A stretch of 64,000 nucleotides of DNA from a virus. Under the pieces are notes generated by a model. The model was not told where the DNA came from, did not search any database, and was given only the letters and a program-made list of their open reading frames with translations. The position numbers were made by a program, and so were the translations under genes. Of this stretch, positions 2,663-56,205 are shown one piece after another; within the stretch, counting starts at the first letter, position 1; each line of letters begins with the position of its first letter. Where the stretch lies: IMG/VR virus record IMGVR_UViG_3300037067_022550; one strand, 5' to 3'.

Positions 2663-3325
2663 TTAAATATTTTTGCCACAACATTTTTTATATTTAATTG
2701 GTTCACCATTTATTTTTTTAGCCCCACAAGGACAAGGATCATTTCTTCCAACCTTAATCTTATTTCTCTCAATTGGTATACTCTTAACACAAAATTCTGT
2801 AATTATTTTCCCTTTAAAATGGTCAAGTTCATGCTGAATTGCTATTGTAACAATCTTATTGTCAACTAAGAACTTTTCATCATCCTTTTCTGTGGGATAA
2901 TTTAAATATATTTTATCTGTTATTAATATGTCCCCATCTATTCTATCATTTTCAATTACTAAATGTTTATATCTGTAAGTATTAAAAAACTGACCAGGAA
3001 ATGATAAACAACCTTCATTGAAAAACAAAAATTCTTCTTCCGCTTCAATAATTTTGGGATTAATTAGGCAAAAGTACTCCTTGCTGTTAAAAAACTCCTT
3101 TTTTAATACTGCAATTGTTTTAGGAATACCTATTTGAATGGCCGCTAACCCAACTCCATTTGGTTCATTATCTAATGTTGATTTGATATTTTCAACGATT
3201 TCTAGGGCTTCCTGGGCTGTTCTAACTGGTTCAGAAACTTGCTTTAAAACATTAATATCTCTAACTATTTTATTGAATCTCCCCACGAATGAATTCTGGG
3301 GATTCCTGATTACTAAGCTACACAT
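2663..3325 (-). CDS. def: peptide deformylase with C-terminal SEC-C metal-binding motif; 5' end overlaps the IS605 right end
   Basis: PDF motifs GVGLAAIQIG, EGCLSFPG and QHELDH. C-terminal DPCPCGAKK...KCCGKN resembles the SEC-C motif. The first 17 codons are encoded by the IS end hairpin sequence. Confidence 0.7.
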   Translation of the reverse strand: MCSLVIRNPQNSFVGRFNKIVRDINVLKQVSEPVRTAQEALEIVENIKSTLDNEPNGVGLAAIQIGIPKTIAVLKKEFFNSKEYFCLINPKIIEAEEEFLFFNEGCLSFPGQFFNTYRYKHLVIENDRIDGDILITDKIYLNYPTEKDDEKFLVDNKIVTIAIQHELDHFKGKIITEFCVKSIPIERNKIKVGRNDPCPCGAKKINGEPIKYKKCCGKNI

Positions 3326-3480
3326 AGTATAGCCTTTCTTTCGAGGCTTATTCCAAGCCCAGCATTGATAACTACCACGGCAGAATTAATATCTCTGTCG
3401 TGATCCGCCCCACAAGCGGAACATACCCAATGCCTTACCTTGAGCCCGCCCAATCCTGTGGGGCCGGTCAAAGCTCCGCA
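3284..3480 (-). ncRNA. putative omega (right-end) guide RNA of TnpB
   Basis: By the architecture of IS200/605 TnpB systems, the omega RNA overlaps the 3' end of tnpB and ends at the RE boundary. Only about 30 nt separate the tnpB stop from the RE hairpin. This is inferred and not seen directly. Confidence 0.3.
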
Positions 3481-4374
3481 GTCCGAACAGGTCATAGTGG
3501 TCTTTCTTGAATTTACCGGAATTATATTCCTACCGCAGATACTGCCCTTGTAGGTTATAAACTTTGCCAACTGTCCCAACCCAGCTTCCGTTACTGACTT
3601 GCCAAAAATTCCTGCTGCCATACCCTTAAAGTTGTCGTCACTGTAGCAAATGGTCTTGTAGTTTTCCACCAGCTTCCTGCTTATCTTATGGTTACGATCC
3701 AGTCTTCTATTAGCTTGCCTTTCCTGCAACCTTGCTGTCAACGCTTTTCTATGTCCTCTTTGAGCTTGAGCAAGGCGTTCTGCCCCTTTATGAAGCTCTC
3801 TAGGATTTTCGATCTTAGTGCCGTTGGACAAGGTTAGCAAGGTATCAAATCCAGGGTCTATTCCAACAGCAGTATTAGTTTCTTTGACTGTGAAAATATG
3901 TATTGTATCTAACCAAAGGCAGAGATACCAACCGGAAGCTTTCTTAACTATTCTACCGCACTTGATTTCTGCATTTGGCAATTCCTGTTTGACGAAGCGA
4001 ACTTTCTTCAATCCAGGAATACTAATTTTACCGTCCTTTGGTGGATTAATTGGATCTGGAAAGGGAATGGAATTGAACTTGTTGTGTCTTCCCTTGAGAT
4101 GTGGTTTCTTGGCTTGCTTTCTAAAACACTTTTTCCAAGCATCATAAACTTGAGATAGAGTTCCCTGAATAGTATGAGAAGGAATGCCTAGTTTCTTTCC
4201 GTGGTCAGCCAGTAAGTTGTGGAATGTCTTCTCAGAAAAGTAGATATTGTCTTTAGCATTAAGTTCTATTTTTTTAAGACCAAAGTTATATACACCCGTT
4301 AAGTTATTAAGCCATCCGTTTAGTGTTTGCTCTTGCTTCTTGGTTGGTCTAAGTTTTAGGGTTCTTACTATCAT
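3313..4374 (-). CDS. tnpB: TnpB (OrfB) RNA-guided nuclease-family protein
   Basis: 353 aa. C-terminal RuvC-III plus zinc ribbon (CSDCGALTG...HWVCSACGADHDRDINSAVVV). N-terminal OrfB helix-turn-helix-like region. Confidence 0.8.
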   Translation of the reverse strand: MIVRTLKLRPTKKQEQTLNGWLNNLTGVYNFGLKKIELNAKDNIYFSEKTFHNLLADHGKKLGIPSHTIQGTLSQVYDAWKKCFRKQAKKPHLKGRHNKFNSIPFPDPINPPKDGKISIPGLKKVRFVKQELPNAEIKCGRIVKKASGWYLCLWLDTIHIFTVKETNTAVGIDPGFDTLLTLSNGTKIENPRELHKGAERLAQAQRGHRKALTARLQERQANRRLDRNHKISRKLVENYKTICYSDDNFKGMAAGIFGKSVTEAGLGQLAKFITYKGSICGRNIIPVNSRKTTMTCSDCGALTGPTGLGGLKVRHWVCSACGADHDRDINSAVVVINAGLGISLERKAILCVA

Positions 4375-24379: not shown

Positions 24380-24965
24380 TTTCTACTTTTTTAACAGTTA
24401 ATTTTTGTTTACATAATTCAGAAAATTTTTCAGCAGCATCGGTCTTCTTACCAAGAGAATCAAAAAATAGAACCATACAACCTTCTATATCTTCTGCTAT
24501 TTCGTCCCATTTTTCAGACTCTATTTTCTTTCTTTCCCCTTCTGATGCGTATTCAATAGACCACTCCTTACCACTCGAAAACTTTGAACTTTGATATTGG
24601 CCTTTAGCATTTAATATCTCTACTGTTATTTCACAACTTTTTCTGATGATTGCTGACAAAGATTTTTCTTTTTGTTCTTCATTATTTATTTTAAGTTGAG
24701 GCTTTTCCATTTTGGCTATTTTTCTCAAGCAGCACTTTAAGCCATATTTTAAATCATCTCCTCTATCAACCCATATTTTTTTATTCAATTTGATTTCTTC
24801 TTCTTTTGTCAACCCTTCTGCCACAGTAGAATAAGAACTATATAATTTAATATTTTGATATTTAGCCAGGTCCACAGTAATCACTGCTGACTTATAAATG
24901 TTAGTATTACAAGATCCGCTTTTAACATCACCAACATTAGTCATTAAATCTTCATTATTTTCCAT
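24348..24965 (-). CDS. hypothetical protein
   Basis: 205-aa ORF. Confidence 0.4.
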   Translation of the reverse strand: MENNEDLMTNVGDVKSGSCNTNIYKSAVITVDLAKYQNIKLYSSYSTVAEGLTKEEEIKLNKKIWVDRGDDLKYGLKCCLRKIAKMEKPQLKINNEEQKEKSLSAIIRKSCEITVEILNAKGQYQSSKFSSGKEWSIEYASEGERKKIESEKWDEIAEDIEGCMVLFFDSLGKKTDAAEKFSELCKQKLTVKKVENVSENNQNNV

Positions 24966-25060
24966 CGTATTTCTCCTTTGTTTTTTGGTATATCATCAAT
25001 CCTCAATTTCATTACTATTGGTTTTTACATATTGAGACTTCATATTAACATTATACAAAG

Positions 25061-25687
25061 TTAAAACAAATCTCCGTCAAATTCTTTGTTTTTCTTTTCT
25101 TTTTTGTTTTTAGCTAAAACCAATTCCTTAGTCTTAACAAAACTTTCCAATAATTTCTTTTTATCTCCCCAATCTCTCATACAACCGCAATCAACTAATG
25201 TTTCAAATACATTTTTGTTCAAAGAACGTCCGCTATTATTAGTTATCAAATCTTCTAAATTTTTATATGGTTGTCTACTAATAATTTCTTTTATAACAAC
25301 ATCCCCTAGTCCTTTTAAAACTGAAAGAGGACGCCTAATTCCACCATTTTCAATTGTATAAACATCTTTGCTTAAATTAATGTCATAAGGGAGTAATTCT
25401 ATCCCATATCTTGGTAAAGAATCCTCATATGGTTCTCTTTTTTCTCTTTGTTGCTCTGACATAACAGAAGACAATAATGAACACATAAATTCTATTGTAT
25501 AATGATTTTTAAGCCATGCTGTTTGATAAGCAAGCATAGCATAGGCTGCCGAATGGCTGTTTGATGTATAAATGCCTAAATCATAATCGTTTACAATTTT
25601 ATAGTTGTGTTGATTAGATTTCATGGTTAAATTATAGGCTTCTTCAACACCTAACGGTTTTATTGATTTTATTTTGCACTTTAGCAT
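25061..25687 (-). CDS. dnaE: DNA polymerase III alpha (DnaE) C-terminal fragment with N-terminal C-intein half (43 aa)
   Basis: Own ATG with AAGGAG RBS. MLKCKIKSIK...IYTSN resembles the split DnaE IntC (MIKIATRKYLGK...ASN). It is followed by SHSAAYAMLAYQTAWLKNHY, which matches the DnaE KSHSAAYA motif. Confidence 0.7.
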   Translation of the reverse strand: MLKCKIKSIKPLGVEEAYNLTMKSNQHNYKIVNDYDLGIYTSNSHSAAYAMLAYQTAWLKNHYTIEFMCSLLSSVMSEQQREKREPYEDSLPRYGIELLPYDINLSKDVYTIENGGIRRPLSVLKGLGDVVIKEIISRQPYKNLEDLITNNSGRSLNKNVFETLVDCGCMRDWGDKKKLLESFVKTKELVLAKNKKEKKNKEFDGDLF

Positions 25688-26783
25688 ATTTTCTCCTTAA
25701 AAATAAATCTTTTTTATTAGAATATATCCATTTTAAGAAACTTATACAAGCTTTTCTTCCCCCCAACAAATATAAATTATAATAAATATTACCATTTTTA
25801 TGTATACTATTATGTATGTGAAATTTAAATTTGCTTTTAATATGACTTAAATCTTCTAAAAATTTAACAGATGCACTTGACAACTGTATTTGGTATCTTC
25901 CACTATTACTTCTATAAATACATCCGTCTCCATCTATCAAACCTCTAAAAAATGAATTAATGAATTTTTTAGGAACACAACCATTATACCTTAATACTTT
26001 TGATTTATTCCTTAATACTCCTAATTTTTTTAAGTCCATAGCAATTTTTTTATTAAACACACAAAGCCTAGCCATATCTTTTGCGTTTGGCATGTTTTTT
26101 CTTCTTGTAGAACAGTTTATATGTGTTATTGGATTACTTCCTCCAATTAAATTTCTTATTTTCTTAAGTATATATCCGTCATTTTTTGTTAATTGTATTC
26201 CAAAACCATCATATTTTTTTATAATATAACCGTCTGTCATAATTAAGCCAAATATATATGCTTTTTCAGAAGAATCTATTTTTTTAAAAAAATCTTCTTT
26301 GTAATGTGTTTGTATTTTGGGTTCTCTTCTTTTAATTCCTCTTTTTTTCAAACACGCATATACTGTTTCTTTTCTTTTAAATCCATATTTTTTGGCAATT
26401 TTATTGGCAACTCCACCATTTATATATTCTTTGATAATCTTTTTTTCAATATCATCTGTAATTTTTTTATTCCAAGAGCATTTTATTGGCAATGGAATTT
26501 TGTTTTTTTTATGAATTCTACATATGGCATAATATTTTGCCCCTGTTTTTTTAGATATTTTAGCCAATGAAATATTGTTACGATAAGCGTAATATGCAAG
26601 ATATTTTAAATATCTTTCTCTTTTTAACATCCATTTATTCTCATTAATTATTCTTCTAATTATTCTTTCTGTTAGTTTTGTTTCTTTTTCTATATTTTTC
26701 ATTTCTTCTTGTCTAAAAAACATAGAACGTATTATTTTTTTTGTTTTTTTATCAACATTTATTTTATTATATGCCATTCTCAT
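25644..26783 (-). CDS. free-standing LAGLIDADG homing endonuclease (two motifs) with N-terminal HTH repeats
   Basis: YIFGLIMTDGYI and RGLIDGDGCI motifs. Lies between the two dnaE halves, in a different frame from both. Confidence 0.75.
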   Translation of the reverse strand: MRMAYNKINVDKKTKKIIRSMFFRQEEMKNIEKETKLTERIIRRIINENKWMLKRERYLKYLAYYAYRNNISLAKISKKTGAKYYAICRIHKKNKIPLPIKCSWNKKITDDIEKKIIKEYINGGVANKIAKKYGFKRKETVYACLKKRGIKRREPKIQTHYKEDFFKKIDSSEKAYIFGLIMTDGYIIKKYDGFGIQLTKNDGYILKKIRNLIGGSNPITHINCSTRRKNMPNAKDMARLCVFNKKIAMDLKKLGVLRNKSKVLRYNGCVPKKFINSFFRGLIDGDGCIYRSNSGRYQIQLSSASVKFLEDLSHIKSKFKFHIHNSIHKNGNIYYNLYLLGGRKACISFLKWIYSNKKDLFLRRKYAKVQNKINKTVRC

Positions 26784-26853
26784 TCTGTTTCCTCTTTTAA
26801 TAGTATATATTCAGCAACATATGCTATTATTCAAAAAGAAACAGATAAAACCT

Positions 26854-29541
26854 TTATTTTATATTTTCTTCATATAAAATATTCATGTCTTTTTCAATAA
26901 TTTCGCTAACAGTATGAGCTTTTCCATCTTCACAAATAAATTTATGATTTAAGGTGCATTTAATTATCATTCCGTTTGATAATTCAATTTCATAAACTTC
27001 TTTTTTACCTGTTTTAAAAACTTTAACAACTTCGTCATCTATTGTATTGCCATCAACATAACTGTCTAAAACAACCTTTATATTACTATTACAAAGTTCT
27101 TCTAATGAATATCTTTTTTTATCAATTTTATTAAAAACTTTGGTTGAACCTAGTAAGCATTCATTGAATCCATATCCTCCAAAATACTGACATAGAGAAA
27201 ACACCCTTTCAGCAATATCCTTTTCAACTCCATGGTTAATGCACCCCTTAATAAACTTATCTTTTAATTTCATTATCTTTTCTGGCTCTTTTTTTCCTAT
27301 ACCTTTTCTTAAAGTATCAGCTTCTGATGCACTGAAGCCAGCCATTTTTATTGAAACTAACATTATTTGTTCCTGAAAAATCATATTGCCATAAGTTTTA
27401 CTAAGCAATTCTTTCATTATTGGATGTATATATTCTACTTGCTTTCTGTTATGCTTATAATCACAATAATCTGTATGGATGTCTGCATTAAGCACCCCTG
27501 GTCTATAAAGAGCATTTGCAACTACTATATCATTAAATGTATCTATTCTTAAATCTCCAATTAATTTGGTCATTCCTGTACTTTCAAGTTGGAATACCCC
27601 TCCTGTATCTCCATTAGTTAGCATATCAAAAACTTTCTGATCATTTGGTTCTAATGAATTAATATCAATGTCTTTATTATGCCTCTTTTTTATTAAGTCT
27701 AAACATTGCTCAACAAGAGTTAGAGTTTTTAATGCAAGAAAATCGAACTTTAGTAATCCCAATTCCTCTACTTCTTTAAGGTTATATTGAGTACAAATTA
27801 CATCTTTAGCTAATCTTAGTGGAACGTGTTGAACTACAGGATCTTTGCAAACAATTATTCCTGCAGGATGAACTCCCGCTGCTGAAAGCTTACCTTCTAT
27901 TTTTTTTGCATAACTAAAAACATCTTTATATTTATCAACATATTCTTTCAAGTTGCTAATATATCTGTTTTTTTTGTATGTAGTAAGTTTATCAATTTCA
28001 ATATTTGGACCATTGGGAATTGATTTGCATATCTCATTGGCAAGCTGTAATGTTTTTTCTCCTGATTCCCAATTGCCCTTAAAATCACCCTTCATGTTTT
28101 CAAAATCATTTCCTATATCTAAAACCTTGCAGACTCTCCTAACAGCGTCTTTTGCCTTCAAACTAGTATATGTTCCTATTCTTGTTGTGCATTCAACTCC
28201 ATATTTATGAGTTAAATATTGAAAAACTTGCTCTTGTTTTGTATAATCAAAATCCAAATCAACATCAGGAGGGCTAACTCTATCTTTATTTAAAAATCTT
28301 GAAAAAAGTAAATTGTATTTTACAGGATCTACGTGGGTAATTCCAAGACAATATAAACATAACGAAGCCACACCACTTCCTCTTCCAGGCCCAGTCCTTA
28401 TCCCTTCTCTTTTAGAGTAGGCAATAACATCCCAAAGTATTAAAAAATATTTTGCATATTTAAGACTTACAATAACATCCCATTCTTCTGCTATCCTTTC
28501 CTCATATTCTGGTTTACCTTTTAAACCCCTATTTACCATACCGTCATCAATTAAACTCTTTAAATATACTTGTTCTGATGATTCTCCAGGTGGCAATTTG
28601 AAATCAGGTAACAAATCTTTTTCAATTTCAATAAGATTATCTTCAATTTTATCAGATATAATAATACTATTGCTTAATAACTCTGGAAGATTTTTATATA
28701 CTTTCTCTAATTCTTCAAAAGGTTTAATATAAAAATCACTAGATTCAAAAGAAAACCTCTTTGGATTTTTAATAGTATCTTTAGTTGCTATACTTAAGAG
28801 AACATCTTGAGCTAAATAATCTTCCTTATCAGCATAATGAGAGTCACATGTAGCTACAGGAAGAATGTGCAGTTCCTTAGCTAATTTATATAACTTATGC
28901 ATAACAATTTTAAATTCACTGGTAGTCTTTTCGTCGTTATATTTGTGAACCATTATTTCAACAAAAAAATCATCACCATATATTTCTTTAAACAATAATA
29001 AGTTTTTTCTAGCAGTTTCCATGTCGTTTTTTAATATATAATGAGCTGCCAAACCATTAATACAAGCAGATCCACAAATAATACCGTCTTTATGCTTCTT
29101 TAACAAATCAACATCAATCCTTGGACGACTATAAAACCCCTTTAAATAGGCCACAGAGCTAAGAGCTATTAAATTCTTATAGCCAACCTTATTTTTAGCT
29201 AATAAGGTCACGTGAAGCCTTTTGTCATCTTTATTCTTAATATTTATATCATCAACTAAATATAATTCTGTTCCCAATATTGGCTTAATCTTTTCTTTTA
29301 TCTCTTCTTTGTTGCCATGATGAACTTTTTGTTCTTTACAAGCATTATAGAACCTATATAAACCAGCACAAGTACCATGATCTGTTAACGCAATTGCTCT
29401 AAAGCGGTTTTTCCTAGCAGTGTTAGCCATATCTTCAGGAGAGCAAAAACCATCTAATAGAGAGAAATAACTATGGCAATGAAGAGGGACATAACCTGCC
29501 CATTGTTTATTTACTGTAGATATAGATGTTTCTTCAGACAT
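26854..29541 (-). CDS. dnaE: DNA polymerase III alpha (DnaE) N-terminal fragment ending in N-intein half (101 aa, 26857-27159)
   Basis: PHP domain HCHSYFSLLDG and pol III alpha core. ...YFGGYGFNE|CLLGSTKV... begins a Hint N-terminal block that runs 101 aa to a stop codon. Confidence 0.8.
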   Translation of the reverse strand: MSEETSISTVNKQWAGYVPLHCHSYFSLLDGFCSPEDMANTARKNRFRAIALTDHGTCAGLYRFYNACKEQKVHHGNKEEIKEKIKPILGTELYLVDDINIKNKDDKRLHVTLLAKNKVGYKNLIALSSVAYLKGFYSRPRIDVDLLKKHKDGIICGSACINGLAAHYILKNDMETARKNLLLFKEIYGDDFFVEIMVHKYNDEKTTSEFKIVMHKLYKLAKELHILPVATCDSHYADKEDYLAQDVLLSIATKDTIKNPKRFSFESSDFYIKPFEELEKVYKNLPELLSNSIIISDKIEDNLIEIEKDLLPDFKLPPGESSEQVYLKSLIDDGMVNRGLKGKPEYEERIAEEWDVIVSLKYAKYFLILWDVIAYSKREGIRTGPGRGSGVASLCLYCLGITHVDPVKYNLLFSRFLNKDRVSPPDVDLDFDYTKQEQVFQYLTHKYGVECTTRIGTYTSLKAKDAVRRVCKVLDIGNDFENMKGDFKGNWESGEKTLQLANEICKSIPNGPNIEIDKLTTYKKNRYISNLKEYVDKYKDVFSYAKKIEGKLSAAGVHPAGIIVCKDPVVQHVPLRLAKDVICTQYNLKEVEELGLLKFDFLALKTLTLVEQCLDLIKKRHNKDIDINSLEPNDQKVFDMLTNGDTGGVFQLESTGMTKLIGDLRIDTFNDIVVANALYRPGVLNADIHTDYCDYKHNRKQVEYIHPIMKELLSKTYGNMIFQEQIMLVSIKMAGFSASEADTLRKGIGKKEPEKIMKLKDKFIKGCINHGVEKDIAERVFSLCQYFGGYGFNECLLGSTKVFNKIDKKRYSLEELCNSNIKVVLDSYVDGNTIDDEVVKVFKTGKKEVYEIELSNGMIIKCTLNHKFICEDGKAHTVSEIIEKDMNILYEENIK

Positions 29542-29593
29542 TTTACTTCTTCGTTTGTTAGTTTATTTGTTTTAATATTATACAACGATTTTA

Positions 29594-30139
29594 TTAACTA
29601 ATTGCATTTTCAATAGCTTCTTTTCTTCTATATGAAGATTTATGTATTACATCTTCAACATACAAAGTAAATTCTTTCCAATTGAATTCATCATTTAAAA
29701 CATTGCTAAACTTTTTCGTTTGATCATTTTGAGACCAAACCAAAAAAGACAAGTTGCCAGGATGTCCAAGTGCTACTCCTTCATAAATAAAAACATTTCT
29801 TCCGTAATTTAGCATATAAACAAAAGATGTCCCATAATCTACAGTAAGAGCTATAGACCTAAGAAAAGAAGTTCCTTCAACAATTACTTCGATTTCTTTA
29901 TAATTGCTAATTACTTTTGCATCTTTAAGTATTTTTGCTATAAAAGACAATTTAGCATAGGTTAAATCAACTTCCATTTTAAAATCTGATAAAGCTTTTT
30001 CTATAGAACTAGAAAACTTACCAATAAATTTATCATGTTTTTCTTTAACTGATTCTAAAACATCTTGATAATCAATTACATTTTGTAATCTATTCATCTT
30101 TTTTTTGTACTCCTTTGCTTTCTGAATTTTTAAATTCAT
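29594..30139 (-). CDS. hypothetical protein
   Basis: 181-aa ORF. Confidence 0.4.
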   Translation of the reverse strand: MNLKIQKAKEYKKKMNRLQNVIDYQDVLESVKEKHDKFIGKFSSSIEKALSDFKMEVDLTYAKLSFIAKILKDAKVISNYKEIEVIVEGTSFLRSIALTVDYGTSFVYMLNYGRNVFIYEGVALGHPGNLSFLVWSQNDQTKKFSNVLNDEFNWKEFTLYVEDVIHKSSYRRKEAIENAIS

Positions 30140-30828: not shown

Positions 30829-31767
30829 TTGATAAGGAGATATATGCCTAATATAATACAACTTTTAATCAATTTATTCAGAAATATAAATAAAAAAGAA
30901 GAAGATTTAATACCACAAGGCACTAACACACCTTCAGTTCAAATTATTGTTCCTGCACCAATTACTCTCCCAGTATTAACGGCTGGTAAGAAAAGGGGAC
31001 TATTTCTCGGGATTAATGACTATCCTGGCTCATCAAATGACTTGAGGGGTTGCTTAAATGATGATATTGAATGGATTTCATTGCTAAAAGATTGTTATAA
31101 ACTTGATGAGATTACTAATTTAACAAACAGCCAATGTACTATAGCAAATGTTAAAAAATATATGACGGAAATAATTAATGTTTCTATGCCCAACGACGTA
31201 TTAATTATTCAATATAGTGGACACGGATCTTATAGAGCAGACATGCATAATGATGAAATTGATGGTAAAGACGAAGCCATTGTTATGTATGATGGTTTTA
31301 TAATAGATGATGAAATTGAAGAAATGTTATCAAAAATAAAAAATGGCGTAAGAACAACTATTATACTTGATTCATGCTTTAGCGGTAGCGGAACTAGATC
31401 ATTTAACTTTAATGATGAAAGCTTTTATAGAGTAGGAAGATTCATGCCTCCAAAGGATAATGGTAAAATAATGGGTCTAAAAATAAAAAGCAGGGTATTT
31501 AGATCTATTGGAAAAACAGAAGAAGAAATGAATCATATTTTAATTTCTGGTTGTTCTGATTCAGAAGTAAGCTATGATGCTGAATTTAATGGAAAATATT
31601 ATGGTGCCATGAGTTATTATGCCACAAAAGTTTTAAGAGAAAATCCCATGATTACATATACTGAATTTTATAAAAAGTTAAGAGAAAAACTACCTAGTTC
31701 CATGTACCCTCAAACTCCCCAACTTGAAGGAAAATCTGAGTTTAAGAACATAATAATGTTTAGTTAA
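30829..31767 (+). CDS. caspase-family (peptidase C14, metacaspase-like) protein
   Basis: AAGGAG RBS. KRGLFLGINDYPGSSNDLRGCLND, catalytic His in IQYSGHGSY, and catalytic Cys in ILDSCFSGSG. Confidence 0.6.
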   Translation: MIRRYMPNIIQLLINLFRNINKKEEDLIPQGTNTPSVQIIVPAPITLPVLTAGKKRGLFLGINDYPGSSNDLRGCLNDDIEWISLLKDCYKLDEITNLTNSQCTIANVKKYMTEIINVSMPNDVLIIQYSGHGSYRADMHNDEIDGKDEAIVMYDGFIIDDEIEEMLSKIKNGVRTTIILDSCFSGSGTRSFNFNDESFYRVGRFMPPKDNGKIMGLKIKSRVFRSIGKTEEEMNHILISGCSDSEVSYDAEFNGKYYGAMSYYATKVLRENPMITYTEFYKKLREKLPSSMYPQTPQLEGKSEFKNIIMFS

Positions 31768-34406: not shown

Positions 34407-34552
34407 ATTTTATTCTCCTTTTAAGAATATTTACATATTATTCTTACTTCATTTAAATTTAACCTTTTTATTTGGTTATATTTATTAAATATTTCTTTTT
34501 ATTGAAATATTATTAACTAAGAATATGGCAAAATCCTTTATTTAATAAAAAG

Positions 34553-34624
34553 AGCACCTTGAGGGAATCGAACCCCCGTCTGAAAGTTTGCAGCTTTCTG
34601 CCTGAACCACTCGACCAAAGGTGC
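34553..34624 (-). tRNA. tRNA-Cys (GCA)
   Basis: Cloverleaf fits. Anticodon stem GAAAG/CTTTC with loop CTGCAAA, and T-arm GGGGGTTCGATTCCC. Confidence 0.65.
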
Positions 34625-34631
34625 TTGAAAA

Positions 34632-34710
34632 TGGTGGGGGAGAAGGGAGTTGAACCCATATTTTCGGATTTTCAGTCCGTTTCCGATTGACCGCGTTGGA
34701 ACACTCCCCC
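34632..34710 (-). tRNA. tRNA-Phe (GAA), somewhat irregular D-arm
   Basis: Acceptor GGGGGAG/CTCCCCC, anticodon loop CTGAAAA, T-loop TTCAACT, and CCA encoded. Confidence 0.55.
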
Positions 34711-34724
34711 ATTACAAGTAAAAC

Positions 34725-34800
34725 TGGTAGTGTCGGTGGGATTCAAACCCACAATTTCAAGCTTCGGAGGCTTGTGCCCTATTCATTAGGCTACAACACT
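34725..34800 (-). tRNA. tRNA-Arg (CCG)
   Basis: Anticodon stem CAAGC/GCTTG with loop CTCCGAA; T-arm GTGGGTTTGAATCCCAC. Confidence 0.65.
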
Positions 34801-34803
34801 ATT

Positions 34804-34884
34804 GGTAGCCCTGACAGGATTTGAACCTGCATTTTCATTTCCATTATGCACTTGACGGGTAGAAACCGCCGCCACTACAGGGCT
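34804..34884 (-). tRNA. tRNA, anticodon undetermined (irregular anticodon/variable region)
   Basis: Acceptor AGCCCTG/CAGGGCT, T-arm GCAGGTTCAAATCCTGT and CCA are clear. No clean 5-7-5 anticodon arm was found. Confidence 0.45.
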
Positions 34885-34891
34885 ATAAAAA

Positions 34892-34982
34892 TGGTGGCGT
34901 CGGATGGATTTGAACCACCAGCGTTTAGCCATAGGCACCTGATTTACAGTCAGGCGGTTTCAGCCAATTCACCCACGACGCC
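34892..34982 (-). tRNA. tRNA-Tyr (GTA), class II long variable arm
   Basis: Anticodon stem CCTGA/TCAGG with loop CTGTAAA; long variable arm; T-arm GGTGGTTCAAATCCATC. Confidence 0.65.
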
Positions 34983-40591: not shown

Positions 40592-41848
40592 TTATTGGGG
40601 CATCATAACAGCCCAATTATATGAACGATTTAATAAGTTAGAAGCAACCTTATTGCAATCTCCTATTGTTGTCTTTTCAATACCGCTGATAATATCTTCA
40701 ACCGTTTTGTTATTATCGAATAATAAAGATTTCATAACTGTGCTAGCCATTCCAAACGATGTTTCTGTATTTCTAAATATTTGAGACAACAAATCAGTTT
40801 TTGCACATTCAAAAACTTTATTGGCTAAACCGTTATGTTTAATTTTGTGTAATTCGTTTTCACATTCTTCAATAAATAAATTAACGTTTTTAGGTGAAGT
40901 ATTGCCATAAATCATAGGAAGAATACAATTAGGATAAGATATATCTGTTACTTGAGAACCTACAGAATAACATAAACCCAATTGCTCTCTTATTCTAGAG
41001 AATAGAATTGAATACATACCACCTCCAATACACTTAAAAAGTATCTTTTGAGCAAAATAATAAAGATCATTTGCCCCTAACCCTAATAGTGGCAAACAAA
41101 CCTGAGACTGAGTTATTTTATTTCTTTTGACAAGTAATTTAATTTTCTTGTTGTTTATAAAATCCTTTTTCCAAAGCTTATTATCACAAATGTTTTTAGT
41201 TCCATGTTTTAAAAAAGAATGCTGTTTTGGGAAATTTAATTTAATGTATTCTATTATATCTTCTGTTTTTGTTGGTCCACAAAAAACAAATAATATATTT
41301 TCATAACAATTGTTTTTATGGAGATATTGAATGATTTTGTCTCTATTAATCCCTTTTATGGTTTTAACAGTGCCAATTATAGAATGACCCTTTTCTTCTG
41401 TGAACATTTTGTTTCCAATGTTTTCATAAAAGAAAGACGTATGGTCATCATTATATCCTTTTCTTTCTTCAATAATAACATTTCTTTCTTTCTCAATCTC
41501 TTCTACTGGAAACAGAGAATTAAAAAACATATCTGTCATTAAACTAATTGCATTTTTTATATTTTTGGCTGGAAAAGTACAATGATATAAAACTTCTGTA
41601 TTATCAGTATAAGCATTTTGACTTGCTCCAATAGATGCAAATTCTTCATTAATTTGTTTCCAGTCTCTATTTTTTGTACCTTTAAAAAACATATGCTCTG
41701 CAAAATGAGAAATTCCGTAAATATCGGGGGTTTCAAAATTGCTTCCACAAATAGTGCAAATTCCCATAAAATTTATATTGCTATTATTATAAATGTTTGC
41801 TACTCTTAATCCATTGACATTTGATATTTCTATGTTTCCGTTTTTCAT
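40592..41848 (-). CDS. M16-family (pitrilysin/insulinase-like) zinc peptidase
   Basis: Inverted zinc motif HFAEHMFFKGT (HxxEH). Confidence 0.6.
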   Translation of the reverse strand: MKNGNIEISNVNGLRVANIYNNSNINFMGICTICGSNFETPDIYGISHFAEHMFFKGTKNRDWKQINEEFASIGASQNAYTDNTEVLYHCTFPAKNIKNAISLMTDMFFNSLFPVEEIEKERNVIIEERKGYNDDHTSFFYENIGNKMFTEEKGHSIIGTVKTIKGINRDKIIQYLHKNNCYENILFVFCGPTKTEDIIEYIKLNFPKQHSFLKHGTKNICDNKLWKKDFINNKKIKLLVKRNKITQSQVCLPLLGLGANDLYYFAQKILFKCIGGGMYSILFSRIREQLGLCYSVGSQVTDISYPNCILPMIYGNTSPKNVNLFIEECENELHKIKHNGLANKVFECAKTDLLSQIFRNTETSFGMASTVMKSLLFDNNKTVEDIISGIEKTTIGDCNKVASNLLNRSYNWAVMMPQ

Positions 41849-41893: not shown

Positions 41894-42934
41894 ATGGAAC
41901 AATTATTTACAAGAAAAGAATTTAGAGAAAAAGTTTTTCAAAGAGACGGCAATAAATGCGTAATATGCAATGAAACCAAAAATCTGGATGCTCATCATAT
42001 TGTTGATCGTAGACTTTGGGATGATGGAGGGTACTATCTTTCCAATGGCGTAACCTTGTGTTCAACTCATCATATTCAAGCAGAGCAAACGGTATTAAGT
42101 TGTAATAATGTCAGAGATGCTGCTAAAATTAAAACGATACTGCTGCCGCCTACTTTTTATAATGATGAACAAATAGACAAATGGGGTAACATAATACTTC
42201 CAAATGGCCAAAGATTTATAGGAGAACTTTTCTTTGATGAATCTGTTCACAAAATATTAGAACTTGGAGGGGTTTTAAATCAATTTACTAAGTTCATAAA
42301 ATACCCCAAAACCCAACACCTGCCTTGGTCTCCTGGAATAACTAAAGATGATAGGGTTATGAAAATTCAAGACTTAGAAAAAAACTTTGGGGGCAAGGAA
42401 GTTGTTATAAGTGAAAAAGTTGATGGGGAAAACACAACATGCTACAACAATTATATTCATGCTCGTTCAATTGATGGCAGAAATCATGTTTCTAGAAATT
42501 GGATCAAGAATTTACACTCCAAAATAAAATATGACATACCTGAAGGATGGAGAATTTGCGGTGAAAACCTTTATGCAAAACATACAATAGCATATTCTAA
42601 TCTTCCATCTTATTTCTTGGTTTTTGCAATATTTAATGAAAAAAACACTTGTTTGAGCTTTTTAGAAACAGTTGAATATTGTAAATTGCTGGGTTTAAGT
42701 TGGGTACAACCAAAATTTATTATGAAATATGATGAAAAATTTATAAAAGAAAACTGTTATACCGGCAATTCAATGTATGGGGGAGAACAAGAAGGTTATG
42801 TGATTAGATTGTCTTCTGAAATTCCATTTACAAATTATAAAAATAGTATTGCCAAATATGTTAGAAAGAATCATGTTCAAACAAATCAAAATTGGATGTA
42901 TCAACCAATAATAAAAAACAAATTGTCAATTTAA
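41894..42934 (+). CDS. HNH-motif / Rnl2-like RNA ligase fusion protein
   Basis: N-terminus CVICNETKNLDAHHIV...CSTHH (HNH). Ligase motif I EKVDGEN, motif III-like RICGENLYAKH, and motif IV EGYVIR. Confidence 0.6.
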   Translation: MEQLFTRKEFREKVFQRDGNKCVICNETKNLDAHHIVDRRLWDDGGYYLSNGVTLCSTHHIQAEQTVLSCNNVRDAAKIKTILLPPTFYNDEQIDKWGNIILPNGQRFIGELFFDESVHKILELGGVLNQFTKFIKYPKTQHLPWSPGITKDDRVMKIQDLEKNFGGKEVVISEKVDGENTTCYNNYIHARSIDGRNHVSRNWIKNLHSKIKYDIPEGWRICGENLYAKHTIAYSNLPSYFLVFAIFNEKNTCLSFLETVEYCKLLGLSWVQPKFIMKYDEKFIKENCYTGNSMYGGEQEGYVIRLSSEIPFTNYKNSIAKYVRKNHVQTNQNWMYQPIIKNKLSI

Positions 42935-45002: not shown

Positions 45003-45077
45003 TGGTGGACCCAGGGAGAATCGAACTCCCACTAAAAGCTTGCAAAGCTCCCGTGCTACCATTATCACTATGAGCCC
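45003..45077 (-). tRNA. tRNA-Ala (UGC), solitary
   Basis: G3:U70 pair, anticodon loop TTTGCAA, T-arm GGGAGTTCGATTCTCCC, and CCA encoded. Confidence 0.65.
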
Positions 45078-53941: not shown

Positions 53942-54018
53942 TGGTGGAACCAGTGGAAGTTGAATCCACACTTACAGGGTGCAGACCTGTCGTGCTATCC
54001 GTTGAACACTATGGCCCC
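53942..54018 (-). tRNA. tRNA-Ala (UGC) with G3:U70; unusual C at position 33
   Basis: Acceptor GGGGCCA/TGGTTCC, anticodon stem ACAGG/CCTGT with loop TCTGCAC, and T-arm GTGGATTCAACTTCCAC. Confidence 0.55.
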
Positions 54019-54028
54019 AAAATTAAAC

Positions 54029-54105
54029 TGGAGCGGGAAACGGGAGTCGAACCCGTACCTGAACTTAGGCAAAGTCCCATGCTAACCATTGAACACCATT
54101 CCCGC
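54029..54105 (-). tRNA. tRNA-Gly (GCC)
   Basis: Anticodon loop TTGCCTA; T-arm ACGGGTTCGACTCCCGT. Confidence 0.6.
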
Positions 54106-54114
54106 ACTAAAAAT

Positions 54115-54197
54115 TGGTGGGCGGAGTGGGACTCGAACCCACGACGCTTACGCAACAGGGTGTAGACCTGTCCTCCTAGCCACTAGAGTACCCGCCC
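54115..54197 (-). tRNA. tRNA, anticodon UAC (Val?) with C33 and an extended variable region
   Basis: Acceptor GGGCGGG/CCCGCCC, anticodon arm ACAGG-TCTACAC-CCTGT, variable region about 12 nt, and T-arm GTGGGTTCGAGTCCCAC. Confidence 0.45.
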
Positions 54198-54250
54198 AAA
54201 AATTGTTTTATCATTATGTATTATACAAAAAAACATTTATTTCTTCATGA

Positions 54251-54324
54251 AGCCCAAGGAGGGATTTGAACCCCCAACATTCTCAGTACGAAAGAGATGT
54301 TCTACCAATTAGAACTACTTGGGC
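54251..54324 (-). tRNA. tRNA-Thr (CGU)
   Basis: D-arm GTTC/GAAC, anticodon loop TTCGTAC, T-arm GGGGGTTCAAATCCCTC; CCA not encoded. Confidence 0.55.
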
Positions 54325-54331
54325 AAAAAAA

Positions 54332-54406
54332 TGGAGCCGCAAATTGGATTTGAACCAATGACCCCGATCTTACCAAGATCGTATTCTGCCCCTGAACTAT
54401 TGCGGC
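54332..54406 (-). tRNA. tRNA-Thr (GGU)
   Basis: Anticodon stem CGATC/GATCG with loop TTGGTAA. Confidence 0.6.
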
Positions 54407-54432
54407 ATTAAATTATTTCATTTCAATTTGTA

Positions 54433-54469
54433 GCTGAAGTCTGGAATTGAACCCACAAGCATCTTCAGC
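54433..54469 (-). other. tRNA-like minihelix / truncated tRNA remnant (acceptor-like 7-bp stem + T-arm-like loop)
   Basis: GCTGAAG-(TCTGGAATTGAACCCACAAGCAT)-CTTCAGC; too short for a full tRNA. Confidence 0.3.
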
Positions 54470-54474
54470 AAAAT

Positions 54475-54549
54475 TGGTACTCCCATCGGGACTCGAACCC
54501 GCTTCACCAGATTAAAAGTCTGGTACTTCACCATAAAAGCTTTGGGAGC
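54475..54549 (-). tRNA. tRNA-Lys (UUU)
   Basis: Anticodon stem CCAGA/TCTGG with loop CTTTTAA; G1:U72. Confidence 0.6.
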
Positions 54550-54555
54550 AAAAAA

Positions 54556-54631
54556 TGGTGATTGCGGGGGGACTTGAACCCCCAGCGTCCAGGGTAAGAA
54601 CCTGGCACTCTGCCAATTGAGTTACGCAACC
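54556..54631 (-). tRNA. tRNA-Lys (CUU)
   Basis: Anticodon stem CCAGG/CCTGG with loop TTCTTAC; T-arm GGGGGTTCAAGTCCCCC. Confidence 0.65.
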
Positions 54632-54636
54632 GAAAA

Positions 54637-54714
54637 TGGTGGGTGCTGTGGGATTTTGACCCACGACTCCCAGGGTAAAAACCTGGTACTCTGTTCATGC
54701 TGAGTTAAGCACCC
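54637..54714 (-). tRNA. tRNA-Lys (UUU), paralog of preceding gene
   Basis: Same anticodon stem, with loop TTTTTAC. Confidence 0.65.
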
Positions 54715-54721
54715 GAAAAAT

Positions 54722-54795
54722 TGGAGCTGGCGGCGGGTACGAGACCGCATAATCCTCATTACAAGAGAGGCACATAACCTTTCTGTCACGCCAGC
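54722..54795 (-). tRNA. tRNA-Thr (UGU), irregular T-arm
   Basis: Perfect acceptor GCTGGCG/CGCCAGC; anticodon loop CTTGTAA; T-loop region non-canonical. Confidence 0.45.
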
Positions 54796-54799
54796 ATAA

Positions 54800-55429
54800 T
54801 TAATAACTTTTTTCACTTTGATATCTAAGTTTTCTATAAAATCTTCCGTTTCCTCTGTTCTTTCCTTTATATGTTGATGTTTGCATATCACAATTTCCGC
54901 ATATTAATCTTAAATTTAAAATACTCCAATTAGTAGAATTACCGTCTATGTGGTCTAACACTAAAGGAACTTCTTTTCCCATCCATTCTGTTGTTCCGCA
55001 TATTGTGCATTTTCCACCTTTAGTTTCTTTTAAATATCTTCTTGCAACTTTAGAATTAAAAATAGGATTTAAAAAAGCATTTCCTTTTGATTCTATTGCT
55101 TTCTTTTTTAAACTCCACTCAAAATCCTTTTGACATTTAATAGTACAATATTTTCTATTGGAAAATAATAATTTTTTACCACAAAATAAACAATTAGATG
55201 GTTCTTCTCCGTGTCTTCTTACTCCTTTGTTATTAAATGAAGCAGCACAAGAATGATTACAAAAAGTTAAACGTCTTTTTTTATATGATAAAACAGAATT
55301 GCAGAATTTACATATTTTGGGATTTGAAATATAATTTTCTCTAAACTTTTTAAATCTTTCTTGATTTTTAATATTAGATTTTTCTGATCCAATCTTACCA
55401 GCTTCCGAACAACTCATTCCTTTTCTCAT
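54800..55429 (-). CDS. HNH homing endonuclease embedded in tRNA array
   Basis: CTICGTTEWMGKEVPLVLDHIDGNSTNWSILNLRLICGNCD plus several CxxC. Confidence 0.6.
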   Translation of the reverse strand: MRKGMSCSEAGKIGSEKSNIKNQERFKKFRENYISNPKICKFCNSVLSYKKRRLTFCNHSCAASFNNKGVRRHGEEPSNCLFCGKKLLFSNRKYCTIKCQKDFEWSLKKKAIESKGNAFLNPIFNSKVARRYLKETKGGKCTICGTTEWMGKEVPLVLDHIDGNSTNWSILNLRLICGNCDMQTSTYKGKNRGNGRFYRKLRYQSEKSY

Positions 55430-55518
55430 TTTTGAACTCCTTATCAGTTGTTAATATACAACTGCTATATGGTTCAAAAATGATTTGTGGCTAACCTGCT
55501 TTTATTTTTCAACAAAAA

Positions 55519-55592
55519 TGGAGCGTCCCAACGGATTTGAACCGTCTCCCAGACCTTGGAAGGGTCTAATGCTACCGTTACACCAGGGACGC
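55519..55592 (-). tRNA. tRNA-Gly (UCC)
   Basis: Anticodon stem AGACC/GGTCT with loop CTTCCAA. Confidence 0.6.
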
Positions 55593-55618
55593 ATCTTTTC
55601 ATTATACAACAAAATAAT

Positions 55619-55697
55619 TGGAGCACCTAATGGGATTTGAACCCATACCATCAGCTTGGAAGGCTGTCATGCTAGATCCGTTGAACACCATAGGTGC
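55619..55697 (-). tRNA. tRNA-Gly (UCC), second copy with longer D-region
   Basis: Anticodon stem CAGC/GCTG with loop CTTCCAA; T-arm ATGGGTTCAAATCCCAT. Confidence 0.5.
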
Positions 55698-55706
55698 ATT
55701 TAAAAA

Positions 55707-55791
55707 TGGTAGGGGGGCGGTATTTATCCAATTATGTGCATTTAAAGCCTCTTGGTTATGAGCCAAGCGATAAAAGCTTTACCTACCCCGC
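55707..55791 (-). tRNA. aberrant tRNA-like element with CAU anticodon arm (possible pseudo-tRNA)
   Basis: Clean anticodon arm CTTGG-CTCATAA-CCAAG, but no canonical T-arm and an acceptor with a 5' extension. Confidence 0.3.
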
Positions 55792-55956
55792 TATAAACTT
55801 TTCAGGGATTTCACGAAATGTTCCACTGTTGGCGACCCGACCGCCATCTTCCTGGTGACCCAGGCGTGCTCCATACACCACGTAGCGTCTATCCTTTTTA
55901 GGTTACTGCCCTTTAGTTCGTCAACTTTCAGGCACACCTCTTGCAAGATTTCAAAT

Positions 55957-56033
55957 TGGTAACGGGGGCCGGATTTGAACCGGCGACCTACAGGTTATGA
56001 GCCTGCCGAGCTACCAGGCTGCTCCACCCCGTA
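55957..56033 (-). tRNA. initiator tRNA-fMet (CAU)
   Basis: Near-identity to bacterial tRNA-fMet (GGGGTGGAGCAGCCTGGTAGCTCG...CTCATAACC...GGTTCAAATCCGGCCCCCG) with a 1:72 mismatch. Confidence 0.8.
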
Positions 56034-56041
56034 ATATTAAA

Positions 56042-56118
56042 TGGTAGCAGGGATGGGACTTGAACCCACAACCTACGGGTTATGAGCCCGTGAAGCTTCC
56101 TATTGCTAGCACCCTGCA
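56042..56118 (-). tRNA. tRNA-Met or tRNA-Ile2 (CAU)
   Basis: Anticodon stem CGGG/CCCG with loop CTCATAA; T-arm GTGGGTTCAAGTCCCAT. Confidence 0.6.
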
Positions 56119-56129
56119 AATCAGTAAAA

Positions 56130-56205
56130 TGGTGCCGGGGAGGGGAATTGAACCCCTGATCTTTCGGGTATGAGCCGAACGTCTTGCACACTCGACCACC
56201 CCGGC
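56130..56205 (-). tRNA. tRNA-Met or tRNA-Ile2 (CAU)
   Basis: Anticodon stem TTCGG/CCGAA with loop CTCATAC; T-arm AGGGGTTCAATTCCCCT. Confidence 0.6.

Follow-up and report, generated by a model that had tools for sequence, protein, structure and literature searches.

Introduction

Natural split inteins, of which the DnaE intein of cyanobacteria is the standard example, raise a question that is still open: by what route can an essential gene be cut in two while its owner survives? In 2009, Dassa, London, Stoddard and Pietrokovski described "fractured genes" at 26 metagenomic loci, three of which are DnaE loci (DnaE-1, DnaE-2 and DnaE-3) with insertion sites unlike the cyanobacterial one; their endonucleases are GIY-YIG or Vsr-like, and LAGLIDADG is absent from the text of the paper (PMC2677866). 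According to the model proposed by these authors, a homing endonuclease gene (HEG) invades an intein, the gene fractures and the endonuclease is later lost (PMC2677866). A survey of actinobacteriophages reported out-of-frame or non-canonical endonucleases in inteins (the out-of-frame types being Vsr-like, endonuclease VII-like and antisense LAGLIDADG) and argued that free-standing genes are the invaders (bioRxiv 10.1101/2025.01.02.630785). The present work concerns a dnaE locus carried by the minus strand of a 64,000-nucleotide (nt) virus sequence, IMG/VR record IMGVR_UViG_3300037067_022550 (this whole stretch is hereafter called the window), in which the polymerase gene is divided into two adjacent genes by a split intein, with a free-standing LAGLIDADG endonuclease gene between the halves. 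We consider it quite probable that this fractured dnaE derives from a mini-intein invaded by a free-standing LAGLIDADG HEG in an AT-rich, jumbo-phage-like genome.

The locus shares many features with the fractured genes of 2009: adjacent and co-oriented host gene halves carrying the N-terminal and C-terminal parts of the intein (IntN and IntC), a free-standing endonuclease open reading frame (ORF) in the gap, a hairpin in the RNA ahead of the endonuclease start, an overlap of the 3′ end of the endonuclease gene with the start of IntC, a phage-like metagenomic origin and DnaE among the hosts. It differs from them by its enzyme, a LAGLIDADG endonuclease with three putative helix-turn-helix (HTH)-like modules instead of a GIY-YIG or Vsr-like one, and by its hairpin, in which no TATAAATA late-promoter motif was seen. 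As in the actinobacteriophage inteins, the frame of the endonuclease differs from that of the intein. However, the intein is mostly a single ORF in these phages, an organization found here only in distant relatives (L116 and L161), whereas the intein of the window is truly split. A preliminary description of the window, made from its letters alone, presented the locus as an independent fractured-gene arrangement. The fractured dnaE is real, but its kind had already been described, with three DnaE loci (PMC2677866). The architecture is thus known, and what is new here is that the endonuclease belongs to a third class and has HTH-like modules, that the family is large and keeps most of the states expected by the 2009 model at a single site, and that its closest solved relatives are the cyanobacterial inteins. 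The literature searched contained no description of this intein family or of a fractured dnaE with a LAGLIDADG gene.

Organization of the Fractured dnaE Locus

The locus comprises the following features (aa, amino acids; UTR, untranslated region; in motifs, a slash marks the junction between extein and intein):

29541..26854, minus strand: ORF A (dnaE N-extein and IntN), 895 aa
27160..29541, minus strand: dnaE N-extein, 794 aa, with PHP, Pol III alpha and finger domains; C-terminal end ...GGYGFNE
26854..27159, minus strand: IntN, 101 aa and TAA; block A is C1, block B is T69-x-x-H72
26784..26845, minus strand: hairpin of the endonuclease 5′ UTR, from folding and shuffles
25644..26783, minus strand: ORF B, free-standing LAGLIDADG homing endonuclease gene, 379 aa, from Pfam, PHROG and the AlphaFold2 (AF2) model
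25693..25698, minus strand: AAGGAG ribosome-binding site of the C-terminal dnaE gene, within the endonuclease codons L-R-R-K
25644..25687, minus strand: dual-coding overlap of 44 nt between the endonuclease tail (YAKVQNKINKTVRC, then the stop) and the head of IntC (MLKCKIKSIKPLGV)
25559..25687, minus strand: IntC, 43 aa; block F is YNLTM..QHNY, block G is ...YTSN, with Ser at +1
25061..25558, minus strand: dnaE C-extein, 165 aa and stop, beginning with SHSAAYAMLAYQ and containing HHH_6
25687..25061, minus strand: ORF C (IntC and dnaE C-extein), 208 aa

ORF A matches the PHP, DNA_pol3_alpha and finger domains of Pfam (E 1e-43 to 2e-72) and, after ...YFGGYGFNE, continues with a 101-residue IntN (CLLGSTKV...TLNHKF...ILYEENIK) before ending with TAA. 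It is separated by a non-coding gap of 70 nt from ORF B, which has its own start (AAAAGAGGAAACAGA-ATG). ORF C begins 44 nt ahead of the end of ORF B with TTAAGGAGAAAAT-ATG; its sequence (MLKCKIKSIK...QHNYKIVNDYDLGIYTSN / SHSAAYAMLAYQTAWLK...) encodes a 43-aa IntC ending with ...GIYTSN, followed by SHSAAYAMLAYQTAWLKNHY and by an HHH_6 domain (Pfam). Each of the three start codons is in a frame of its own (29541-26783 = 2758, remainder 1; 29541-25687 = 3854, remainder 2); with the stop codons and the 70-nt gap, this is not the structure of a single-polypeptide intein with an in-frame endonuclease domain. Once joined, the exteins add up to 794 + 165 = 959 aa (DnaE 1-794 and 795-959), compared to 957-982 aa in uninterrupted relatives. 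A three-gene layout with intein homology far beyond chance is indicated both by the match of IntN+IntC with the structure of the Npu intein (E 1.4e-10) and by the fact that an independent assembly and dozens of divergent loci show the same layout.

These results agree with every element of the observation made in the preliminary description, namely an N-terminal dnaE ORF ending with ...YFGGYGFNE, a 101-aa Hint block and a stop codon, a downstream ORF with an AAGGAG ribosome-binding site, an ATG and a 43-aa IntC ending with TSN, and a double-motif LAGLIDADG gene with its own ribosome-binding site, in a third frame between the halves. Its statement that the break lies inside a conserved DnaE motif also holds, as the exteins join as GFNE/SHS and intein-free relatives are uninterrupted at this point.

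Distribution and Inheritance of the Arrangement

An independent MEGAHIT assembly from another archive (ENA, L003) contains three ORFs identical to those of the window. The same gene order, i.e. an N-half ending with IntN, a LAGLIDADG gene of about 370 aa and a C-half starting with IntC and overlapped by the endonuclease gene, is found in L004, the Qld7 contig, L005/L006, L007 and L010, whose DnaE proteins are 46-66% identical. The neighboring genes are conserved in these relatives, with RecA/UvsX downstream and a caspase-like gene and a dCMP deaminase gene upstream. Metagenomic and viral contigs were then scanned with the endonuclease family and the loci obtained were searched by tblastn. This revealed the layout in every locus whose endonuclease is at least 36% identical, wherever the flanks are sufficient (L011-L025, L027, L034 and L091-L093). 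The stop, start, hairpin and overlap of the window recur at more than 25 metagenomic or viral loci that have diverged from it (26-66% extein identity).

The pairwise identities of extein, IntN, endonuclease and IntC between loci are all about 45-65%, and no near-identical inteins in diverged hosts were found among these comparisons. Furthermore, comparison with the empty allele of L008 (intein-free sequence GGATATGGCTTTAACGAATCGCATTCGGCAGCT, site context GGATATGGCTTTAACGAA/TCGCATTCGGCAGCT) did not reveal any co-conversion tract around the site, the identity remaining flat at about 81%. Therefore, the arrangement is old and mostly vertically inherited, and empty, mini and split alleles coexist in the wider lineage. 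Concerning known phages, megablast of the locus against 50,697 phage records gave no match, and the only hits of a protein search in these records were remote relatives of the endonuclease, none above 35% identity, and an intein at this site that had not been annotated (MT835601). The search of viral contigs with ORF A retrieved only two distant, intein-free dnaE loci.

The codons of the site were also compared (27157-27162 and 25556-25558 in the window). Synonymous codons track the presence of the intein in the three sequences considered, with GGA TTC AAT ... AGC in the window and L010 and GGC TTT AAC ... TCG in the empty L008, a pattern that may reflect the endonuclease target or immunity. 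These synonymous codons right at the site (for Ser+1, AGC in the window and TCG in L008) are the only departure from the flat identity with L008, which is too little to be interpreted.

The Intein Halves and Their Same-Site Relatives

The 120 best DnaE homologues were used as a comparison set. The three closest ones (P0002-P0004, 79-81% identical) have an uninterrupted GYGFN[EQR][SA]H[SA] motif, i.e. an empty site, about 20 others are N-halves with the same end position as ORF A, and about 10 carry a contiguous intein at exactly the same site, of which nine (146-216 aa) were extracted. Relatives with a contiguous dnaE therefore exist, both intein-free and with same-site mini-inteins. IntN and IntC align colinearly and end to end with the nine contiguous mini-inteins, the break corresponding to a short variable linker, and the beginning of IntC (MLKCKIKSIK) is found internally in the contiguous P0011 and P0044.

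Of the canonical blocks (summarised in PMC7765530), A and B are present, F and G are recognisable with one deviating position each (see below), and the break lies in the canonical loop between B and F. Over 11 family members, C1, H72, H128, N144 and Ser+1 are invariant and T69 nearly so. Block A thus provides the Cys that is the first intein residue, block B (TLNH) aligns with TKDH of Npu, the His of QHNY in block F is invariant, and block G ends with the terminal Asn followed by Ser+1. The last 25 residues of IntN have a net charge of -4 and the first 12 residues of IntC one of +4, with similar values in nine relatives; this pattern fits the electrostatic pairing of split-intein halves discussed in PMC2677866. 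Altogether, these alignments point to a true split intein in dnaE, encoded as two genes. We infer that the family splices despite its deviant auxiliary residues (see below), since the contiguous members share the same deviations and yet interrupt a conserved polymerase motif, and that the halves of the window would splice in trans. In practical terms, the family would provide dozens of natural split-intein pairs with Ser at +1.

Inteins were also observed at other sites: P0046, P0049, P0090 and P0119 carry at least one further intein with a LAGLIDADG_3 domain at one or more upstream DnaE sites, and P0046 combines such a LAGLIDADG_3-bearing intein with a split intein at GFNK/.

The LAGLIDADG Endonuclease and Its Expression

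ORF B matches LAGLIDADG_3 of Pfam in two stretches (E 6e-15) and phrog_4645 "endonuclease" (E 2e-43). Its family is made up of free-standing proteins (about 320-400 aa) that share 40-60% identity from end to end (41-59% for the 32 full-length free-standing homologues of ORF B). Two motifs stand out, GLIMTDGY, whose Asp (D184) is conserved in at least 90% of the proteins, and RGLIDGDG, whose Asp (D286) is invariant; the N-terminal region of about 165 residues is also conserved across the family. The AF2 model based on the family alignment (mean predicted local distance difference test score 89.7) shows nine helices in three HTH-like groups (residues 12-147) followed by a two-lobed nuclease core (172-375). 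ORF B is accordingly modelled with the two-lobed alpha-beta-beta-alpha-beta-beta-alpha LAGLIDADG fold, and the Foldseek matches of the core include TliVMA (4e-7), PI-PfuI (4e-6), the bI3 maturase, PI-SceI, I-DmoI and I-OnuI (E 4e-7 to 1e-4). Residues 1-165 were assigned to three putative HTH-like helical modules; this assignment comes from the AF2 helices, since Pfam gave no match in the first 171 residues. With its additional putative DNA-binding modules, this LAGLIDADG enzyme would be expected to recognise a polymerase motif that is universally conserved, which could be of practical use.

A homologue of ORF B, gp36 (29% identity over residues 144-368), also interrupts the dnaE gene of Bacillus phage 0305phi8-36. 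However, it is annotated as belonging to a mobile intron (in which Rfam does not find a group I intron) located about 500 codons into dnaE and not at GFNKSHS, and no intein is involved.

The 70-nt gap upstream of ORF B folds into a long hairpin (free energy -24.8 kcal/mol, z -6.1, none of 200 shuffles being as stable). In its outer stem, CUGUUUCUUUUU is paired with the Shine-Dalgarno region AAAAGAGGAAACAG of the endonuclease gene, and its inner stem is a conserved palindrome, TAGCATAT with ATATACTA, which is retained in the closest relatives (TAGTATAT...ATATACTA). More distant loci (L012, L013, L017, L018 and L022) have hairpins of different sequence, also located over the ribosome-binding site. 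At the other end of the gene, the endonuclease tail (...LYLRRKYAKVQN.I and stop) is nearly invariant across the family, owing to its dual-coding: its R-R codons form the AGGAG site of the downstream gene and its YAKVQNKI overlaps M.KCKIKS of IntC. The overlap between endonuclease and IntC is 29 nt in nearly all loci and reaches 44 nt in the window because the usual stop codon is lost. A promoter and terminator scan of the locus did not detect anything above the shuffled expectation. Since there is no excess of terminator-like or promoter-like signals inside the locus, the three genes are likely co-transcribed. The hairpin motif ATATACTATTAAA was considered as a general promoter of the genome and rejected, as the 64 kb contain a single exact copy. 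An intron in the window was likewise rejected, no Rfam family matching positions 24500-30000 at E up to 1.

Origin of the Fractured Gene

Compared with the contiguous allele L171, the window has matching DNA that starts 5 nt ahead of the ATG of IntC and runs on downstream, and divergent DNA before that point. A 1.2-kb cassette (UTR and endonuclease gene) therefore sits in the 5-8-codon linker of a mini-intein, and the last residues of the endonuclease are read from pre-existing intein DNA. Homologues of the endonuclease are also found within dnaE in other vehicles. In L033 (4087-5307), a 319-aa homologue of ORF B (31% identical) is carried by a group I intron (RF00028, 58 bits, E 1e-13) that interrupts a distant dnaE a few codons before GFN, the exact splice junction being uncertain; the N-terminal extension of this homologue includes the region aligned to the third HTH-like module of ORF B. 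This intron was recovered by a focused Rfam E-value search; at the gathering threshold, Rfam did not report any intron in six loci, not even the one annotated in phage 0305phi8-36. In L116 (4188-5336), L161 (4176-5336), L163 and L164, the same-site intein (...CFN[KA]/CL...AN/SHA) is one continuous ORF. Out of frame with the intein, its middle part (822-825 nt) codes for a 273-274-aa homologue of ORF B. Not a single stop interrupts the intein frame over these 822-825 nt, compared to a shuffle mean of 11-17, none of 5000 synonymous-codon shuffles reaching zero, and between L116 and L161 the endonuclease frame is 53% conserved compared to 27% for the overprinted peptide. These elements are truly dual-coding, with an out-of-frame nested HEG.

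Other loci suggest that the endonuclease decays while the split persists: L010 (7731-8585) and L020 have a split intein with an endonuclease gene truncated to 284 aa, lacking the first ~100 residues, and only the last 109 endonuclease codons are left beside the split intein of L034 (3469-4873). Another observation concerns L110, L111, L115 and similar loci, in which a related endonuclease gene interrupts dnaE about 35 codons upstream; no intein was detected in them.

Several explanations other than the invasion of a mini-intein by a free-standing HEG have to be weighed. The three ORFs could be a single in-frame dnaE with a canonical LAGLIDADG intein, cut by two frameshift errors of sequencing or assembly; LAGLIDADG is indeed the usual endonuclease type within inteins, the region has error-prone AT-rich homopolymer runs and the ORFs occupy three frames. 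This explanation is effectively refuted and deserves practically no credit: identical ORFs come from the MEGAHIT assembly of the other archive, more than 25 loci repeat the stop, start, hairpin and overlap despite their divergence, and ORF B has a ribosome-binding site of its own, follows a 70-nt non-coding gap and begins with about 165 aa that are conserved in its family. The possibility of frameshifts at 25559-27159, raised in the preliminary description, is thus settled by the agreement of the independent assembly and of the diverged loci. It could also be supposed that the halves do not splice, IntN and IntC being a non-covalent dimerisation module, or the gene being dead and the host polymerase used instead. 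The lack of the penultimate His and of the block F Asp would go in this direction, as does the precedent of Aeh1 NrdA (PMC3045599), a phage enzyme whose gene is interrupted by an endonuclease gene and whose parts assemble again with no splicing. We nevertheless judge this very unlikely: C1, T69 (nearly), H72, N144 and S+1 are kept across split and contiguous members, the contiguous members, with the same non-canonical residues, must splice as their intein breaks the conserved GFNKSHS motif, and both extein halves are conserved over deep divergence.

The preliminary description saw in the locus an intermediate between an endonuclease-bearing mobile intein and a split intein. This implies decay from within: a bifunctional intein with an in-frame LAGLIDADG domain would have gained stop and start codons, and its endonuclease, having become independent, would be heading towards loss, leaving a domain-less split intein. 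Truncated or residual endonuclease genes (L010, L020 and L034) show that decay after the split does occur, and the top Foldseek matches of the nuclease core, TliVMA and PI-PfuI, are intein-embedded domains. This route is nonetheless unlikely. None of the 64 homologues of ORF B examined is embedded in a longer protein, all nine extracted same-site contiguous inteins are mini-inteins without LAGLIDADG, and the LAGLIDADG-bearing inteins of the 120 best DnaE homologues sit at other sites. Furthermore, ORF B has a putatively regulated UTR and encodes three additional HTH-like modules, its relatives being either free-standing phage genes or genes borne by introns, and in L116 and L161 it lies out of frame inside the intein. 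The evidence, i.e. the L171 junction, the homologues in other vehicles (L033, L116/L161), the lack of an in-frame LAGLIDADG domain in the same-site inteins found, the ~165 extra N-terminal residues, the 5′ UTR of the gene itself and its intron-borne relatives, therefore favors a scenario in which a mini-intein was invaded by an endonuclease gene, either free-standing or of the intron type, over in-frame decay, and on this point the interpretation of the preliminary description has to be revised.

Several observations weigh against our interpretation as a whole. The junction would fit both the insertion of the endonuclease gene into a mini-intein and its deletion from a split one, and the direction cannot be proven from it. 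The best structural matches of the core are those of intein-embedded enzymes, by a small margin, and the absence of a co-conversion tract leaves no mark of recent homing. As for the intein, the Asp position of block F is occupied by an invariant Asn (YNLTM compared to YDIGV in Npu), the penultimate residue of block G is variable (Ser in the window) and never His, and IntN alone reaches only 28.8 bits with Intein_splicing of Pfam (E 1e-6) for a cut-off of 35.8. Finally, the "phage" label comes from the replication genes, the 18 tRNA genes and the relatives in IMG/VR, as the window did not show any structural gene of a phage.

The splicing, cleavage specificity, hairpin function and homing that we infer would combine as follows under invasion. 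A mini-intein would first have occupied the fingers motif of Pol III alpha, with GYGFNx on one side and SHSAAYA on the other. The entry of an HEG with its own 5′ UTR and start into the short linker loop would then have split both intein and host gene into two adjacent genes. The three genes would probably be co-transcribed, the hairpin burying the ribosome-binding site would hold down translation of the endonuclease, and the C-terminal dnaE gene would be translated from the AAGGAG site within the last endonuclease codons. The polymerase fragments would be brought together by the acidic terminus of IntN and the basic beginning of IntC, forming one HINT domain; trans-splicing by Cys1, the block B Thr and His, the terminal Asn and Ser+1 would yield a 959-aa polymerase with GYGFNE-SHSAAYA restored. 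The endonuclease would cut the intein-free dnaE of co-infecting relatives, and repair would copy the whole IntN-HEG-IntC cassette.

Relationship with the Cyanobacterial DnaE Split Inteins

The fused IntN+IntC and the family profile were searched against all PDB sequences. The cyanobacterial split DnaE inteins rank first: Npu (1.4e-10 with the fused sequence, 5e-14 with the profile), Cfa (2e-13) and Ssp (3e-8). They are followed by Ssp DnaB (1e-7), gp41-1 (1e-4), NrdJ-1 and RecA. The alignment spans both halves, and the break of the window coincides with the split site of Npu. The PDB being a small and biased sample of inteins, this kinship is a lead and not a proof.

The window intein and the cyanobacterial ones (Ssp, Npu and Cfa) share the host protein, the loop in which the break occurs, Cys1, an acidic N half and a basic C half. 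IntN is 101 aa long in the window and 102 aa long in Npu DnaE. Unlike the cyanobacterial DnaE inteins, that of the window lacks the penultimate His, and its +1 residue is Ser (the conserved Ser of SHS serving as putative nucleophile) instead of Cys. Its site, GFNE/SHS, is four residues downstream of the cyanobacterial site, given that the native Npu junction is AEY/CFNK (PMC3759424), which agrees with the earlier estimate of a few residues. Its halves are adjacent, 1.2 kb apart with the endonuclease gene between them, whereas the cyanobacterial halves are at separate loci (PMC2677866). The window intein is thus, on the basis of alignments, homologous to the cyanobacterial DnaE split intein family without being a member of it. 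The preliminary description considered the arrangement as independent of the canonical one; the site, the +1 residue and the adjacent halves do differ, but the independence itself is uncertain, the cyanobacterial DnaE inteins being the closest solved relatives.

In L116 and L161, the extein before the intein reads RYCFNK/ or RYCFNA/ instead of the usual GYGFNK/, and its Cys falls where cyanobacterial DnaE has its +1 Cys (AEY/CFNK). This Cys may be what an intein at the cyanobacterial site left behind, or it may be there by chance.

A bolder and rather doubtful reading, to which we give a limited chance, is that a single LAGLIDADG lineage colonised the GYGFNKSHSAAY-coding hotspot of dnaE in three vehicles (group I intron, contiguous intein with the endonuclease out of frame, and split intein), and that the phage split-intein family may be a sister or source lineage of the cyanobacterial one. 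The latter idea comes from the closest solved relative, the shared break loop, the four-residue offset and the YCFNK extein of L116/L161. If this reading were true, every step toward a naturally split essential gene would be kept at one site and open to testing. A single DnaE site already keeps most states of the 2009 model: empty, mini-intein, nested out-of-frame endonuclease, split with intact endonuclease and split with decaying endonuclease. As these states are kept at one site and the cyanobacterial inteins are the closest solved relatives, the model can be tested by phylogenetics and by splicing and cleavage assays.

Genome Context

The window, which comes from a 264-kb contig, has a GC content of about 30% and many ORFs without matches. 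It carries SbcC-like, UvsX-like and methyltransferase genes and 18 tRNA genes (34552-34982, 45003-45077 and 53942-56205), mostly in two minus-strand clusters and including three tRNA-Met and three tRNA-Lys genes; relatives of the locus are found in IMG/VR viral contigs. A jumbo-phage-like origin is likely. The caspase-like gene (Peptidase_C14) conserved beside dnaE in the relatives is located at 30829-31767 on the plus strand. Other genes of the window encode a transposase-like protein (3313-4374, minus strand; phrog_506, E 1e-70), an M16 peptidase (40592-41848, minus strand) and an RNA ligase (41894-42934, plus strand). An 810-aa ORF (57591-60023, minus strand) matches the Major Vault Protein shoulder (E 4e-23) and the Vault_3 repeat (E 4e-8) and has no PHROG match; such a vault-protein-like gene is unusual for a phage-like genome.

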